The notes under the pieces are model-generated. The model did not search any database and was not told the origin of the DNA. It was given only the letters and a program-made list of their open reading frames with translations. Positions 3,868 to 8,576 of a stretch of 14,070 nt of DNA are shown here, piece after piece. Position 1 is the first letter of the stretch. Every line of letters starts with the position of its first letter. Source of the DNA: a virus (Duplodnaviria; Heunggongvirae; Uroviricota; Caudoviricetes); the IMG/VR virus record IMGVR_UViG_2648501165_000006. The stretch is one strand, 5' to 3'. A program made the translations under genes and the position numbers.

Positions 3868-4458
3868 TTAGCATGATTCAGGGGAAACCCCAATATTAAA
3901 TATGAGTGACTCTCCTGAATCAGCATAATAATGTAATATTATTGACTTACGTTGTTTTCTTGCTTCGTAGAATAAACGCTCTTGCGGCGATAATTTGTGA
4001 AAACTGCCGGATGCACAATATATGTTTTTTAACTTTTCGCTGGTTGCTTTTATTGTATCTTCTGAGATGTATTTTAGGTATTTATCCGTATAGATGTTGC
4101 TACTATAAGAAATTAATGTTTTGCTGTTGTTGTGATGTATTGTATTTTTATCGTTGAAGTCTGTATTTTTATTTACTGTCATTAGGTTTTTAATGATTAC
4201 ATGTAATGCAATAGTCTCCCCATCATCAATTCCATATTTGATGTCATAGTCAGTATATTTATTTGTTATACCGCTTCCTGATAGCGGCACTATGTACTCT
4301 GAGAAAAATGAGTTTGCCGCGTGACCATCAAGAGCAATAGCAGTTTTTTTGTGGTAAAAATAAAACAATATTGAGAGAGTCAAAATAATAGCGACGCCTA
4401 ATGCAACCTTTAATATAGATATGGTTTTCAAAATATCGCTCCTTGTTGTAACATACAT
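3868..4458 (-). CDS. Membrane-anchored hypothetical protein in an AT-rich moron (candidate superinfection-exclusion or defence effector)
   Basis: Visibly AT-rich ORF. It has one long N-terminal hydrophobic segment (ILKVALGVAIILTLSILFYFY) followed by a ~165-aa soluble domain with two Cys. The start is ambiguous: TTG at 4479 (ORF track), ATG at 4458, or TTG at 4431 preceded by AGGAG at 7-nt spacing. It lies immediately downstream of the RHH regulator gene on the same strand. Confidence 0.5.
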   Translation of the reverse strand: MYVTTRSDILKTISILKVALGVAIILTLSILFYFYHKKTAIALDGHAANSFFSEYIVPLSGSGITNKYTDYDIKYGIDDGETIALHVIIKNLMTVNKNTDFNDKNTIHHNNSKTLISYSSNIYTDKYLKYISEDTIKATSEKLKNIYCASGSFHKLSPQERLFYEARKQRKSIILHYYADSGESLIFNIGVSPESC

Positions 4459-4521
4459 CAGTAATGTGGCGTTTTTCAATTGTATTAAAGACGTGTAATA
4501 TGTACACGCCTTTTGTTCTTC

Positions 4522-4953
4522 CTATTCAGGTATTTCAATTCCAAAACCATCTGCATCCCATGAGTTTTCACAGATGATGTAACCTAGTTCATTGAGCTTA
4601 TTAAATGTTTTTTCAAAGATGATCTGGTAATCATTATCTGCAAGTGATTCCAGTTCAAGGTCATTAAGGTTTATATAAAAACTTGTATGTCCAAGTGTTA
4701 TTTTCTTATTGATTTCATTAAAAGTTCTTTTGAAAATAATATTTGATATTTCATGCCGTGCATTGTTTGCAATAATTTTTGCTTCATAAGCAGAAATTAC
4801 GTCATCTTCATGAATATCTTTCAGAAAGCTGGTGTCAAGACGTTGTACTATTTCAGCGTTCATTGAGCGCTTATTGGCTTTTGCAGAAATTTCTATTTTT
4901 TCTTTTACTTCAACGGGAAGTCTGATCCTTAGTTGTGGATCTTCTCTGCTCAT
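4522..4953 (-). CDS. Arc/Mnt-family ribbon-helix-helix transcriptional regulator with a ~90-aa C-terminal extension
   Basis: The N-terminus MSREDPQLRIRLPVEVKEKIEISAKANKRSMNAEIVQRL matches the Mnt/Arc RHH pattern (basic beta-strand, then helices, with the ...RSMN.E... motif). The likely start is ATG at 4953 with a GGTGA ribosome-binding site; the ORF-track start at 4983 is TTG. The gene is AT-rich. Confidence 0.6.
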   Translation of the reverse strand: MSREDPQLRIRLPVEVKEKIEISAKANKRSMNAEIVQRLDTSFLKDIHEDDVISAYEAKIIANNARHEISNIIFKRTFNEINKKITLGHTSFYINLNDLELESLADNDYQIIFEKTFNKLNELGYIICENSWDADGFGIEIPE

Positions 4954-4998
4954 GTTCTTCACCAAATATTGAGTTACTTGCAATGATTGAAGTATGCC

Positions 4999-5059
4999 TC
5001 ACCGTGTGCTTGACATCAATGACGCACGGTGTGACAATTGTTTTGCCCCACGGTGGGGC
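4999..5059. promoter_or_regulatory. Divergent immI-like control region: sigma70-like promoter (TTGACA 5010-5015, 17-nt spacer, GACAAT 5033-5038) overlapped by repeated CACCGTG / CACGGTG operator-like half-sites
   Basis: CACCGTG at 5000-5006 and its reverse complement CACGGTG at 5025-5031 flank the -35 element. A third copy sits inside the near-palindrome GCCCCACGGTGGGGC at 5045-5059, just upstream of the AAGGAG ribosome-binding site (5061-5066) of the Arc-like gene. Confidence 0.4.
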
Positions 5060-5073
5060 TAAGGAGATATGAA

Positions 5074-5241
5074 ATGCAAAAAGCAAAAGAGATGTGTCAA
5101 CGACGAGTTCGTTTTCCGGACGATGTGAAGTTAGCTATTGAAAGAAATGGCGAAAAAGAATGCCGAAAGTTCAATACAGAGATTATCTATCAGCTGAGGA
5201 AAGTGTATGGACTCACTGGTGAGAAGAATAGCGTGGCATAA
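5074..5241 (+). CDS. Arc-like small ribbon-helix-helix repressor (55 aa)
   Basis: ATG at 5074 is preceded by AAGGAG at 7-nt spacing. The product MQKAKEMCQRRVRFPDDVKLAIERNGEKECRKFNTEIIYQLRKVYG has the size and RHH pattern of phage P22 Arc. The ORF-track start at 5038 lacks a ribosome-binding site. Confidence 0.6.
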   Translation: MQKAKEMCQRRVRFPDDVKLAIERNGEKECRKFNTEIIYQLRKVYGLTGEKNSVA

Positions 5242-5247
5242 AACAGC

Positions 5248-5280
5248 GAAGCCCAACGGTGGCCAGACCGTCAGGGCTTC
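5248..5280 (-). terminator. Hairpin between the Arc-like and antirepressor genes, terminator-like on the minus strand (candidate sar-type antisense RNA terminator)
   Basis: 7-bp stem GAAGCCC / GGGCTTC with an internally structured loop. On the minus strand the hairpin is followed by a T-rich tract (TGTTTTAT); on the plus strand it is not. Confidence 0.35.
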
Positions 5281-5313
5281 AGTATCGTAAAACTACGTAT
5301 AGGAATTAACGAC

Positions 5314-6140
5314 ATGACGAGTATAGCAACAGCGCTATCTACTATCAACGTGCCATTCCACGGCGCAGAACTTTATGTTGTCAATCACAACGGAGAACCG
5401 TACACCCCAATGAAACCTATCGTTGAAGGCATGGGTATGGATTGGGCTTCACAGTTTACGAAAATGAAGCAGCGGTTTAAAACCTGCATTGTGAAAATCA
5501 CAATGCAGCTTCCTGGGGATGAACAGCGCCGTGAGATTATTTGTTTGGCACTTCGCAAACTTGCTGGCTGGTTGCAAACCATCAGCCCTAACAAAGTCCG
5601 CCCTGAAATCCGCGACAAGGTAATCCAGTATCAGGAAGAGTGTGACGATGTTCTCTACGAGTACTGGACTAAAGGCCATGTGGTTAACCCACGCAAAGCT
5701 AAAAAGGCGTTGCCGGGTAAAATAACCACTGAACAGCAGGAAGCCATTAAACAACTCGTCATGAGTCGCGGTCAGTCTCTGCCAAAAGAAAAACAGGCTA
5801 AGGCGATGATCACCATGTGGTCGTCACTGAAATCTCATTTTGGCTGTTCGTACAAAGAAATTGATGAAGATCAATTCGCCGAAGCGTTGTCTCTTGTTGC
5901 TCGGGTTCCGCTTGAAGGGGAGCATCTCCCTGCTGGATCTGCATCAGAGAATGATGAAGTGGCAGTCAAGATGTTAGATGCGCTTCGTGAGGCAATTAAA
6001 ACACAGACAAAATGTTATGGTTATCCGCTGAAGCCCGGCTACCGCAGTCTGATTCATTCGCCGTCTGGTGTTCTCGGCCTGACGGAGAACNNNNNNNNNN
6101 CCACGCGGAGTACATCAACGACAAGGCAGGGTTCTTCTGA
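5314..6140 (+). CDS. Antirepressor (Ant-like N-terminal domain plus KilA-C-like C-terminal domain), interrupted by an assembly gap
   Basis: The N-terminus MTSIATALSTINVPFHGAELYVVNHNGEPYTPMKPIVEGMGMDWASQF is antirepressor-like. After the N run, the frame ...HAEYINDKAGFF-stop (ending at 6138-6140) matches the C-terminus of the minus-strand antirepressor 7124..7810. The ORF-track extension to 6315 is a frame artefact of the N10 placeholder. Confidence 0.6.
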
Positions 6141-6255: not shown

Positions 6256-6277
6256 AAAAAAGCCCGCAACGCGGGCT
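6256..6277 (-). terminator. Rho-independent terminator immediately after the 181-aa minus-strand gene
   Basis: On the minus strand: stem AGCCCGC, loop GTT, stem GCGGGCT, followed by T6 (the plus-strand A-run at 6256-6261). The hairpin overlaps the stop codon at 6277-6279. Confidence 0.6.
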
Positions 6278-6822
6278 TATTCCTTCCATTTATCAGAAAA
6301 AAGCTCTTCTTCTAAAGGCATTGGTTCTGTTTTTGTTTTCTCAAAGAATTGATAACTGATAGTGATTGCTTCCTCTTTAAACTCTTCTTGCTCAGTTATG
6401 TTGTGGGCATCTGCGTCAACAAAAAACATAACCAGCGCATCACGATTGTGATTTACCGAATAAACTAAAAAGCAATCACTTGTTGGTATGCATTTTACTT
6501 GCACAGACGCTATATTTTTCCATGCATCCCAAGATGATTTTTTACCAGTGTGTTTTTTATCACTATCTTCTGGAATATAGTCTTGGTTATCGACATGAGT
6601 ATGCCTGACATTTAGTTTAAGCATTTCTGTCGGACGAGCAAATGCAGCATCTTTACCAAGAGATGGATGGTATCCCGTTTTCCAATACTGGGTAAAGGCA
6701 TCAGATACTTTCTTCAGCTCAAGATCAGATGCACAAAGGGCCGAGAAATTTTGCGTATGCAATACTCGACCCTTATATCTGACAATTTGATTTTTATCAT
6801 TCTGCGACGCAGACGAACTCAT
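6277..6822 (-). CDS. Hypothetical 181-aa protein, candidate toxin or abortive-infection effector (possible YafO-like motifs)
   Basis: ATG at 6822 is preceded by AAGGA. The motifs ...EMLKLNVRHTHV... and ...CFLVYSVNHNRDALVMFFVDA... resemble, from memory, conserved blocks of YafO-family mRNA-interferase toxins; this is unverified. The gene is flanked by its own terminator and lies between convergent antirepressor genes. Confidence 0.5.
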   Translation of the reverse strand: MSSSASQNDKNQIVRYKGRVLHTQNFSALCASDLELKKVSDAFTQYWKTGYHPSLGKDAAFARPTEMLKLNVRHTHVDNQDYIPEDSDKKHTGKKSSWDAWKNIASVQVKCIPTSDCFLVYSVNHNRDALVMFFVDADAHNITEQEEFKEEAITISYQFFEKTKTEPMPLEEELFSDKWKE

Positions 6823-6976
6823 AATTTTCCTTATTGTTACGAGAATCAAAGAAAGCTCGGGATACGCGACTTGCGTGATCTTTTGTCATAGTAACTTTTA
6901 CGTACTCTACGCTTCCATTGAAAGAACGTCTTGCGGCAGCTTGCGCTCTACGCATCTGCAATTTTTCGTTTCGCAT
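6797..6976 (-). CDS. Small 59-aa ORF upstream of and overlapping the 181-aa gene (candidate antitoxin or regulator)
   Basis: ATG at 6976 is preceded by GAGG at ~7-nt spacing. The N-terminus is Arg-rich (MRNEKLQMRRAQAAARR...). It overlaps the downstream gene start by 26 nt in a different frame. It is absent from the ORF track, which appears to omit ORFs of this size (shortest listed is 60 aa). Confidence 0.35.
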   Translation of the reverse strand: MRNEKLQMRRAQAAARRSFNGSVEYVKVTMTKDHASRVSRAFFDSRNNKENYEFVCVAE

Positions 6977-7100: not shown

Positions 7101-7359
7101 GCACATCCCTGTGCCGCCGCCCGTCAGAAGAACCCAGCCTTGTCGTTGATGTACTCCGCGTGAGTCTGGATATCACGCAGGCATTTGCTCACACCGACGA
7201 TGTAGCAGAACATGGTGGTCAGCTCCGCCGCCGCGCCCGATACATCGTGCCCGTCGTCCTGTAACTGGTTAAGCAGATTCATCAGCAGTGAGTTCTCCGT
7301 CAGGCCGAGAACACCAGACGGAGAATGAATCAGGCTGCGGTAGCCGGGCTTCAGTGGGG
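7101..7359 (-). repeat. Inverted repeat copy B (C-terminal module of the Bro-N antirepressor plus 3' UTR)
   Basis: The reverse complement matches copy A with a few mismatches. The repeat ends at GCACATCCCTGTGCCGCC (7101-7118). Confidence 0.8.
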
Positions 7360-7810
7360 CACTGTAGGTTTTGTTCTCTATCTTCATTGCCTGCATCACT
7401 GCTGATGCTGTGGCGTTGGCTACCTGGTCGGCAACCATCTTTATGCGTTCTTCCTGCGGGAGCGAGTTTTTAATGTAACTTCCGGTGCGGCGGATCTGAG
7501 GAAGAACCTCACCTGTAACCCATTTACGAAAGCGGTAGGGGATAGTGCCTGGTGTCACCGCATCGCGGCAGCGGAGGATCAGTGTGTAGAGGCCTGACTC
7601 GTTGATAATATTGGTTTCGCCTTGACGGCCTAAGTTAAATTTAGCCCTTTCATCATCATCAAGAGATTTTATTGACATAGTGGGGTTTGTCAGTTGAAGA
7701 GCTTTAATAACGTCTTTGGCAACAAACCAAGGATTTCCATCAATAACAATGGCTCGAATGGTTGCTTCTGATTCAAAATGAAAAACAGATGGGGTTACGT
7801 TAGCAGTCAT
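7124..7810 (-). CDS. Antirepressor with Bro-N-type N-terminal domain and KilA-C-like C-terminal domain
   Basis: From ATG at 7810 (ribosome-binding site AAGGTG) the N-terminus reads MTANVTPSVFHFESEATIRAIVIDGNPWFVAKDVIKALQL, the Bro-N signature. The C-terminal ~85 aa are near-identical to the gapped antirepressor at 5314..6140. The ORF-track extension to 7963 (MCKAHLFYGG...) is judged non-coding. Confidence 0.65.
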   Translation of the reverse strand: MTANVTPSVFHFESEATIRAIVIDGNPWFVAKDVIKALQLTNPTMSIKSLDDDERAKFNLGRQGETNIINESGLYTLILRCRDAVTPGTIPYRFRKWVTGEVLPQIRRTGSYIKNSLPQEERIKMVADQVANATASAVMQAMKIENKTYSAPLKPGYRSLIHSPSGVLGLTENSLLMNLLNQLQDDGHDVSGAAAELTTMFCYIVGVSKCLRDIQTHAEYINDKAGFF

Positions 7811-7963
7811 AGTGATCACCTTTGTAGTTAGGTTAATCACCACTACCGACGCCAATCGGTTGGTGGTGAACTGTGCAGGGTTGGCGTAACCGGCTACAAA
7901 GGACCCGGCGCACCTTTCGGTGCCCCCACACAGCCCACCATAGAATAGGTGCGCTTTACACAT

Positions 7964-7983
7964 AAAAAAAACCGCTTATGCGG
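7964..7983 (-). terminator. Weak terminator-like element (short GC stem followed by T8 on the minus strand)
   Basis: Plus strand reads AAAAAAAA then CCGC-TTAT-GCGG. On the minus strand the 4-bp GC stem is followed by eight T. The stem is short, so the call is weak. Confidence 0.25.
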
Positions 7984-8123
7984 CATATGTGCCTCTGTAG
8001 TAACTCGGGACGCCAATCCCGGCACTGGATTTTGCCAGTGCCCGATTACTATGGCACAAGAGGAGTGCGATGTAAATTTACCTCAAAGGTAAATATAAGC
8101 ACTCCACTTGGTAATTGCAAACC

Positions 8124-8381
8124 TTATCTGGTTTGCTTTCGTAATTGTTCGGCACAATAGTCGAGATGTGTTTGCAGATCCTGCATAGACATCTGTGAGC
8201 TGGTGACGTAGTTAATCAGTGCAGTCAGTTCGGCAAGTGGGCCATCGACATTAAATCCATCCTTATCGAGATCCCGGAGTAATTTCATCAAGTGCGATCC
8301 CTCCACCAGTGATCTGACGCCTCCCGGCGTGTGAATCCTTTCGGTAAATCCCTCTTCCAGTGGATAGTGATACTGCTGCAT
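8124..8381 (-). CDS. Stand-alone KilA-C-like (antirepressor C-terminal) domain protein, ~85 aa
   Basis: ATG at 8381 is preceded by GGAG. The sequence ...HTPGGVRSLVEGSHLMKLLRDLDKDGFNVDGPLAELTALINYVTSSQMSMQDLQTHLDY aligns by eye with the C-terminal modules of both antirepressors (...HSPSGVLGLTENSLLMNLLNQLQDDGHDVSGAAAELTTMFCYIVGVSKCLRDIQTHAEY). Confidence 0.55.
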   Translation of the reverse strand: MQQYHYPLEEGFTERIHTPGGVRSLVEGSHLMKLLRDLDKDGFNVDGPLAELTALINYVTSSQMSMQDLQTHLDYCAEQLRKQTR

Positions 8382-8576
8382 CTTATCTTCTCCATGCAAT
8401 AACTGTATAAATATACAGTAGCAAATAATTTGTTTGCTATCCAGCACGTTTTGCGAATCACCTGAAAGGTAATATCTGTTCGTATTTATGGGTTATCTAT
8501 CCATATATGGTTTTTAAGGTAATAGAATAACCGGATATGCGGCGCAACGGGTGCTGCGACTATCTGGAGATTTAAC

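Follow-up and report, generated by a model that had tools for sequence, protein, structure and literature searches.

We propose that the 120-bp spacer between two divergently transcribed genes for ribbon-helix-helix (RHH) proteins in a P22-like prophage of Escherichia coli holds the promoters and operators of an immI-type antirepressor switch, a reading to which we give a probability of about 0.7. The prophage is represented by a 14,070-nucleotide (nt) stretch of viral DNA (IMG/VR record IMGVR_UViG_2648501165_000006), the whole of which is here called the window. The P22 immI region and its two repressors, Arc and Mnt, are the textbook models for DNA recognition by RHH proteins and for antirepressor control of prophage induction. 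With the gene set and order of P22 immI as the reference (PMC2629481), the window presents the same set: a divergent Mnt-like RHH repressor, promoters and operators, an Arc-like RHH repressor, a sar antisense RNA and the antirepressor Ant. Three palindromes in the spacer, O1, O2 and O3, are very probably operators through which the two RHH repressors control both the ant promoter (Pant) and the mnt promoter (Pmnt). The locus is a widespread variant of the textbook system rather than something fundamentally new, and it extends that known system; our literature search found no paper describing these operators or the Mnt-like/Arc-like pair.

The Pant-type promoter (5010–5038, plus strand) consists of TTGACA at 5010–5015, a 17-nt spacer and GACAAT at 5033–5038, carries an extended -10 (TG at 5030–5031) and is predicted to start transcription near 5045. 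An earlier note on this DNA had pointed to this promoter toward the arc-like and antirepressor genes, and to three CACGGTG-type motifs, the third inside a palindrome near the ribosome-binding site (RBS) of the arc-like gene. Direct reading of the sequence bears out each of these elements, with CACCGTG at 5000–5006, CACGGTG at 5025–5031 and the palindrome GCCCCAC-G-GTGGGGC at 5045–5059, and an independent promoter scan reports TTGACA-17-GACAAT (10/12 plus the TG) as one of four promoter-like sites in 4400–5500. On the minus strand, a candidate Pmnt (4991–5019) has its -35, TTGATG, running from 5019 to 5014, a 17-nt spacer, and its -10, CATACT, running from 4996 to 4991. Its -35 overlaps that of Pant, which is on the other strand, and O1 falls within the Pmnt spacer; we regard TTGATG-17-CATACT as a candidate back-to-back divergent promoter for the mnt-like gene.

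The same note had taken the CACGGTG-type motifs for half-sites; they are instead the centers of full palindromic operators of 15–21 bp that are conserved across genera. The family follows the frame (T)GNCNCAC-N-GTGNGNC(A), with a core 15-mer. O1 (4996–5010, center 5003) reads GCCTCAC-C-GTGTGCT and fits the pattern with one mismatch, whereas O2 (5018–5038, core 5021–5035, center 5028), reading AATGACGCAC-G-GTGTGACAAT, and O3 (5042–5062, core 5045–5059, center 5052), reading TTTGCCCCAC-G-GTGGGGCTAA, fit it exactly. O1 sits within the Pmnt spacer and abuts the Pant -35. An overlap of the first motif with this -35 had also been suggested, and what remains of it is that the full O1 15-mer touches the first T, the CACCGTG itself flanking the hexamer. 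O2 fills the -35/-10 spacer of Pant and overlaps its -10, and O3, whose arms match at 9/10 positions as an inverted repeat, covers roughly +1 to +15 of Pant next to the arc-like RBS AAGGAG (5061–5066, plus strand), which precedes the ATG at 5074 by 7 nt. The half-sites in the window are GTGGGGC in O3, GTGTGAC and GTGCGTC in O2, and GTGAGGC and GTGTGCT in O1; the O1 of the window lineage obeys the NCNCAC rule, yet its right arm carries an O2-like purine at position -4. The whole window has three copies of CACSGTG against 1.3 expected, all of them in 5000–5055; three copies placed uniformly would fall within 56 bp with a probability of 4.7e-5, and such a tight cluster arose in 0 of 2000 dinucleotide shuffles. 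The generalized operator GNCNCACNGTGNGNC, with at most one mismatch allowed, matches only at 4996, 5021 and 5045, against 0.25 matches expected.

Conservation across relatives supplies the second line of evidence. Relatives were gathered from GTDB genomes and IMG/VR by their Arc-like (65–81% identity) and Mnt-like (52–69%) proteins and yielded 72 distinct control regions from 166 loci in Enterobacterales, the genera including Raoultella, Kluyvera, Citrobacter, Rouxiella, Pluralibacter, Dryocola, Proteus, Mixta, Yersinia (Y. pestis) and Xenorhabdus. They share a constant layout: from the mnt-like start, TTAT-GCCCCAC-N-GTGGGG-TTGACA-NC-AATGACGCAC-G-GTGTGACA(C/A)T, then 7–10 variable nt, O3 with the consensus (T)GCC(C/T)CAC-N-GTG(G/A)GGC(A), the RBS (GGAG at an equal distance from the arc-like start) and arc. 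This constancy of the three-palindrome layout identifies the three motifs of the window as the centers of complete operators. All six arms keep G at -7, C at -5, C at -3, A at -2 and C at -1 with hardly an exception, while -6 and -4 vary; the central base is free both in O1 (G47/C17/T5/A3) and in O3 (G43/C15/A12/T1), and the DNA from the -10 to O3 and from O3 to the RBS varies in sequence and length. Invariant arms around free centers, separated by variable DNA, therefore fit symmetric protein-binding sites.

In the relatives, O2 is set apart from O1 and O3. Their O1 is a perfect palindrome, GCCCCAC-N-GTGGGG(T), with each arm position matched in at least 67 of the 72 regions, and O1 and O3, the latter with 17 arm variants, have a pyrimidine at -4. 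O2, unlike them, is a distinct and stricter class with G at -4 of the left arm in 69/72 regions and A at that of the right arm in all 72, A or T at -6, and G at the center in 71/72. The promoter block TTGAC(A/T)NCAATGACGCACGGTGTGACA(C/A)T is nearly invariant (54 distinct sequences), exactly three sites are present at 44 of the 48 Mnt-like loci, and the alignment of the relatives reveals no further conserved block in the spacer that could serve as an operator for the Arc-like protein. The TTATG flank of O1 is invariant while the corresponding flank of O3 varies, which argues for an extra constraint at O1, namely the Pmnt -10; the promoter scan does report the equivalent of Pmnt, TTGATG-17-CATAAT, in one relative (L003). 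In most relatives (L003–L093) a conserved A/T-rich block of about 25 nt, AAAAATTCACAATA(A/T)GTAAATTATG, also separates O1 from the mnt-like start; in the window lineage the sequence there is unrelated. One viral contig (L127; IMG/VR 2808606796_000003) carries a natural deletion upstream of arc, that joins the left arm of O1 to the right arm of O3 and takes out the -35, O2 and the -10, as expected from recombination between repeated operators.

The comparison with P22 places these elements in a known frame. The Pant of the window is in register with the annotated Pant of P22: toward arc, P22 reads TTGACA-[tgatagaagcactctac]-TATATT-ctcaat-AGGTCCACGGTGGACCT-gtattgtGAGGTgaat-ATG and the window TTGACA-[tcaatgacgcacggtgt]-GACAAT-tgtttt-GCCCCACGGTGGGGC-taAGGAGatatgaa-ATG, the P22 annotation putting Oarc in the -35/-10 spacer and Omnt on the palindrome AGGTCCACGGTGGACCT. 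Both have a divergent Mnt-type repressor, an Arc-type gene first in the ant operon, a sar gene with its promoter inside ant, a TTGACA -35 followed by a 17-nt spacer, and a palindromic operator 6–7 nt after the -10. Since O3 and Omnt occupy the same position and have the nine central bases CCACGGTGG in common, the window palindrome is the positional homolog of Omnt; the outer bases differ, the half-site being GTGGACC in P22 Omnt and GTGGGGC in O3. The view in the earlier note that the operator sequences differ from those of P22 thus needs qualifying for O3, which keeps the 9-bp core of Omnt, but it holds for the outer bases and for Oarc, which nothing in the window resembles: no P22-type Oarc (ATGATAGAAGCACTCTACTAT, with its TAGA-box) was found between the -35 and the -10, and O2 shares the position of Oarc only, having a Mnt-type core in sequence.

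The resemblance to immI that the note had drawn is likewise sound for the genes, sar and general layout, and breaks down at the additional O1, the back-to-back promoter and the long form of the Mnt-like protein. The window has three operators, all of the Mnt type, against two in P22, and O1, upstream of the -35, is without a P22 counterpart. In P22 Pmnt and Pant, as annotated, cover nearly the same stretch in opposite directions, and a single Arc operator underlies both; in the window the candidate Pmnt stands back to back with Pant, the two having only the -35 region in common and predicted starts about 61 bp apart. The displacement of the promoters by about 25 bp, each with an operator of its own in its spacer, explains the existence of a third operator. 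A minus-strand Pmnt in the style of P22, with its -35 downstream of the Pant -10, was sought by eye and discarded, as no acceptable hexamers were seen there.

The two proteins encoded on either side of the spacer are consistent with this picture. The mnt-like gene (4522–4953, minus strand; start at ATG 4953, not at TTG 4983) specifies 143 amino acids (aa), whose N-terminus matches the Pfam Arc family (1.1e-14) and has P22 Mnt as its best solved relative (1MNT, 3.5e-7); over its full length (positions 1–143/143) the protein matches PHROG 1388, a family of long Arc/Mnt-type proteins (5.1e-72). An AlphaFold model (predicted local distance difference test score, pLDDT, 81.5) adds a long helix and a small α/β domain to the RHH, and comparison of this model recovers no recognizable structural relative for the C-terminal α/β domain. 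P22 Mnt, by comparison, has about 82 aa and a short C-terminal tetramerization tail. On sequence grounds the window protein is an RHH homolog of P22 Mnt that departs from a strict ortholog in its reading residues, in its tail and length, and in its half-site. The arc-like gene (5074–5241, plus strand), first in the ant operon, codes for 55 aa that match PHROG 228, annotated "Arc-like repressor" (3.4e-5), and P22 Arc in an hhalign comparison (E 3.6e-4, probability 37%); a profile search against the PDB returns weak Arc matches only (E 0.09–0.2). In BLASTP 38 aa of it align with the N-terminus of the Mnt-like protein (37% identity, E 8e-7), and Q-x-R-x-R-x-P falls in register. There is moderate support for the prediction that this 55-aa open reading frame (ORF) encodes an Arc-type RHH repressor, and the earlier proposal of two divergent RHH genes agrees with these matches.

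P22 Mnt binds a symmetric site as a tetramer, with the half-site GTGGACC in which G3 is the most specific base (PMC2726951). Its reading residues H6 and N8 are replaced by Q6 and R8 in the window, R2 and R10 being common to both, and in place of the Q9, N11, R13 of P22 Arc the Arc-like protein has Q9, R11 (K11 in relatives) and R13, the same triad as Q6, R8, R10 of the Mnt-like protein. Both repressors of the window hence present the same reading strand, Q-x-R/K-x-R. The Mnt proteins form a series in which the CAC-N-GTG core and R2/R10 stay constant and the outer bases shift along with residues 6 and 8: P22 and eps34 (R2, H6, N8, R10) have GGTCCAC-G-GTGGACC, ST160 (R2, Q6, N8, R10) has AGACCAC-C-GTGGTCT, the Pseudomonas Pf-type loci (R2, Q6, K8, R10) have GGA(C/T)CAC-N-GTG(G/A)TC(C/T), and the Mnt-like family of the window (R2, Q6, R8, R10) has GCCCCAC-N-GTGGGGC. 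The constancy of this core marks all three window operators as Mnt-type. Because Q6/R8 and R/K11 differ from the H6/N8 and N11 of P22, it is plausible that the system has a DNA-binding and immunity specificity distinct from that of P22.

Two other groups of loci in this series lack an arc-like gene, sar and ant. A long Arc/Mnt-type repressor replacing repressor C in some Pseudomonas Pf filamentous prophages has been noted as a gene class (PMC7549136). The Pf-type loci in IMG/VR (L174–L177) specify a 140-aa long Mnt-like protein with 42% identity over the full length and the N-terminus MSREDPQFKLRMP, divergent from an excisionase-like gene, and between the two genes lie two or three CAC-N-GTG palindromes in the same layout around TTGACA. 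Unlike the window, they show a single arm type, GGA(C/T)CAC, and belong to another host and phage type. Upstream of their position 1501 they also have the strings CAATG and ATTGTTTTG in common with the window family, and taken together the sequences suggest that the whole control region, beyond the protein alone, is homologous across very different phage types. The Mnt-only "ant moron" remnants of the P22-like phages ST160/SE1, ST64T and L, whose region sits in the variable slot before the tailspike gene (PMC2629481), have a short-form Mnt-type repressor with a single upstream CAC-N-GTG palindrome, which in ST160 reads AAGACCAC-C-GTGGTCTT.

From the observed elements, their conservation and the homology to P22, we infer the site–protein pairs, the transcription starts and the signs of regulation as follows. 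The strong Pant would transcribe arc-like and then ant, and the weaker back-to-back Pmnt would transcribe the mnt-like gene. An RHH repressor bound at O1 (Pmnt spacer and Pant -35), at O2 (Pant spacer and -10) or at O3 (Pant start) would block RNA polymerase. In the lysogen, the Mnt-like protein would occupy O3, the homolog of Omnt, as well as O1 with its arms of the same type, and would thereby keep ant silent and limit its own synthesis; after infection, the Arc-like protein made from Pant would bind O2, the site at the Oarc position with arms of a separate type, and shut Pant down after a burst. The sar RNA would add antisense control of ant translation. The particular assignment of the Mnt-like protein to O3 and O1 and of the Arc-like protein to O2 has in our estimate slightly less than an even chance of being right.

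Several observations weigh against the proposed switch or against this division of sites. The window's own Pmnt hexamers are weak (8/12) and absent from the output of the promoter scan for the window. The Arc-like protein has no Pfam match, and its AlphaFold2 monomer model is of low confidence (pLDDT 59.7). As both proteins keep their reading residues throughout the relatives, sites cannot be assigned to proteins through covariation within the family; the sole change in a reading strand, Arc K11 to R11, coincides with the altered O1 of the window lineage and is a single event. In Mixta and Xenorhabdus O2-type arms appear at O3 with the proteins unchanged, which argues against a strict rule of one protein for one arm type. 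Literature searches turned up no binding, footprint or transcription-start data for the system. Finally, the Pf-type loci maintain their two or three palindromes around TTGACA with only the 42%-identical long Mnt-like protein to serve them, and the Mnt-like protein may therefore bind O2 too.

This last point leads to an account in which the Mnt-like protein is the sole user of all three operators. They would form a cooperative array that came with the control region of the phrog_1388 family, and the Arc-like protein would act elsewhere or as a weak or modulating partner. The Mnt-family CAC-N-GTG core in every window operator, missing from P22 Oarc, and the recurrence of exactly three sites at nearly all Mnt-like loci speak for this account. 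However, O2, with its purine at -4 and fixed central G, is kept as a separate class in all arc-containing relatives while at the arc-less Pf-type loci every site has the same arm type; the Arc-like protein is a clear RHH paralog of the N-terminus of the Mnt-like protein with the same reading strand; the spacer offers it no other conserved candidate site; and P22 Arc autoregulates from the position equivalent to O2. We hence hold exclusive use by the Mnt-like protein to be unlikely. Another reading, somewhat better favored but still less likely than not, is that both repressors read one shared operator code and the three operators are a common platform on which they compete or cooperate; the identical reading strand makes some overlap in site use likely. 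Under such sharing the Mnt-like protein would be the maintenance repressor, which might use its extra C-terminal domain to bridge O1 and O3, and the Arc-like protein would be an infection-phase repressor tuned to O2, the site with a purine at -4.

O3 could instead act mainly in RNA, as a 5'-terminal stem-loop that affects the stability or translation of the arc-ant mRNA near its RBS. Once transcribed, O3 would fold at the extreme 5' end, two bases before AAGGAG, into a G+C stem of 6 bp with a loop of 3 nt, and the whole 66-nt leader folds at -15.9 kcal/mol (z = -2.4). Against this, the same palindrome type occurs at O2 and at O1, upstream of both predicted starts and hence untranscribed; about 20% of the relatives have GCCCCAC-N-GTGAGGC, which puts a C·A mismatch into the plus-strand RNA but amounts, in a symmetric DNA site, to a neutral exchange of pyrimidines at -4; and O3 is homologous in position and sequence to the annotated Mnt binding site of P22. 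A chiefly RNA-level role thus appears quite improbable, and an RNA role and an operator role for O3 are not mutually exclusive. Still more remote is the idea that the motif recurs by chance or through the composition of the promoter region and has no function of its own. CACSGTG is short, and at least three copies occur somewhere in 33 of 200 window shuffles, but the confinement of three copies to 56 bp found no match among the shuffles, the extended 15-mer is found three times, here only, despite its low expectation, and the conservation of the three sites across genera, when the DNA between them varies, effectively refutes this idea. We accordingly prefer the reading in which O1–O3 are operators of both RHH repressors.

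Downstream of arc-like, the remaining immI components are in place. A sar-type antisense RNA (5245–5312, minus strand) matches Rfam RF00262 over model positions 1–68/68 with 45.2 bits, against a gathering score of 43; it covers the arc-ant junction with the ribosome-binding region of ant, folds with z = -3.3 and has a terminator-like hairpin (5269–5250, minus strand) that covaries in relatives. An apparent fourth operator copy, GCCCAACGGTGG at 5251–5262, a degenerate left half plus core (exact 12-mer GCCCCACGGTGG in Escherichia phage TL-2011b), lies within this hairpin and was rejected, as the stem covaries while its sequence changes completely in relatives. The Psar-type promoter TTGATA-17-TATACT (5320–5348, minus strand; 10/12 plus TG in the promoter scan) lies inside the 5' end of ant, where P22 Psar is also annotated. 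The ant gene (5314–6140, plus strand), downstream of arc-like, encodes a protein with the P22_AR_N domain (Pfam PF10547, 1.2e-44), and its TL-2011b ortholog is annotated as anti-repressor Ant, 314 aa. A run of 10 N at 6091–6100 breaks the ant ORF, whose reading frame is not continued across it; given the 314 aa in TL-2011b, the run therefore stands for about 130 masked or unassembled nt.

A very close relative of the window is this same TL-2011b (NC_019445), a P22-like phage originating from an O103:H25 enterohemorrhagic E. coli strain, to which the region is 98.8% identical; prophages matching the region at 96–99.8% identity are carried by 38 of 5426 complete E. coli genomes. From the mnt-like gene to the 5' region of ant, with the three operators included, nucleotide identity to TL-2011b and to these 38 genomes is 98.8–99.8%. 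TL-2011b has A instead of G at position 5041 and one base different in the loop of the sar hairpin, and its record labels the genes "Arc-like repressor" and "anti-repressor Ant" while leaving operators, promoters and sar unannotated. Its mnt-like gene has one extra C (GATCCCTTAG as against GATCCTTAG) at about 6475–6480, equivalent to about 4925–4930 of the window, which ends the Mnt-like protein after 14 codons, the record annotating only a shorter ORF downstream; the extra C is either a sequencing error or the mark of a natural mnt-defective phage.

More than 100 other E. coli prophages match the window only at 5240–5330, that is, at sar and the start of ant (80–92% identity), and have unrelated genes upstream, for instance one for a ClpX-type zinc-finger protein. 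The part with the mnt/arc control is thus mosaic and exchangeable as a module, and ant control modules appear to be swapped at the sar junction (5240–5330). Among the relatives, conversely, the mnt/operators/arc/sar cassette precedes at least three unrelated antirepressor N-termini (P22_AR_N, Bro-N and a third type), and it thus behaves as a portable control unit.

The window also holds a second antirepressor module of a different type (7124–8041, minus strand), convergent to the sar/ant module. An isrK small RNA (8041–7965, 74 bits) and a C4 antisense RNA (7945–7859, 79.5 bits) immediately precede a Bro-N antirepressor gene (7963–7124), a style of control like that of P1/P7 c4-ant or Gifsy-1 IsrK. 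With the sar/ant and isrK/C4 modules, the prophage therefore has two antirepressors under two different RNA-based controls. Both antirepressors contain a near-identical C-terminal segment (…PLKPGYRSLIHSPSGVLGLTEN…HAEYINDKAGFF; 6040–6140 versus 7124–7330), and these segments, being on opposite strands, form a long inverted repeat, from which the N run in ant probably arises. Related antirepressor C-terminal-like sequence recurs in a stand-alone ORF (8124–8447, minus strand). Between the two antirepressor modules is an ORF for a YafO-like toxin (6277–6849, minus strand; Pfam PF13957, 9e-6), whose TL-2011b equivalent is annotated as a YafO-family toxin and has a small ORF immediately before it.

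What is new relative to P22 immI, as judged from the sequences, is the operator set, the promoter geometry and the architecture of the Mnt protein. The variant is common, occurring not only in the 38 complete E. coli genomes but in at least 10 other genera and more than 130 viral contigs, and it would constitute an immunity class of its own (heteroimmune) among the P22-like prophages of pathogenic E. coli. Its compact regulated promoter could be of practical use in engineering. If both repressors do read a shared code, the cassette would be a portable control unit placed before many unrelated antirepressors across Enterobacterales, and its long Mnt-like protein would also have taken the slot of the primary repressor in some Pseudomonas filamentous phages. 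The Mnt reading strand with its matching operator changes offers a natural four-step specificity series (H/N, Q/N, Q/K, Q/R), and the three-operator design could show how paralogous repressors with near-identical reading heads divide a single promoter between them.

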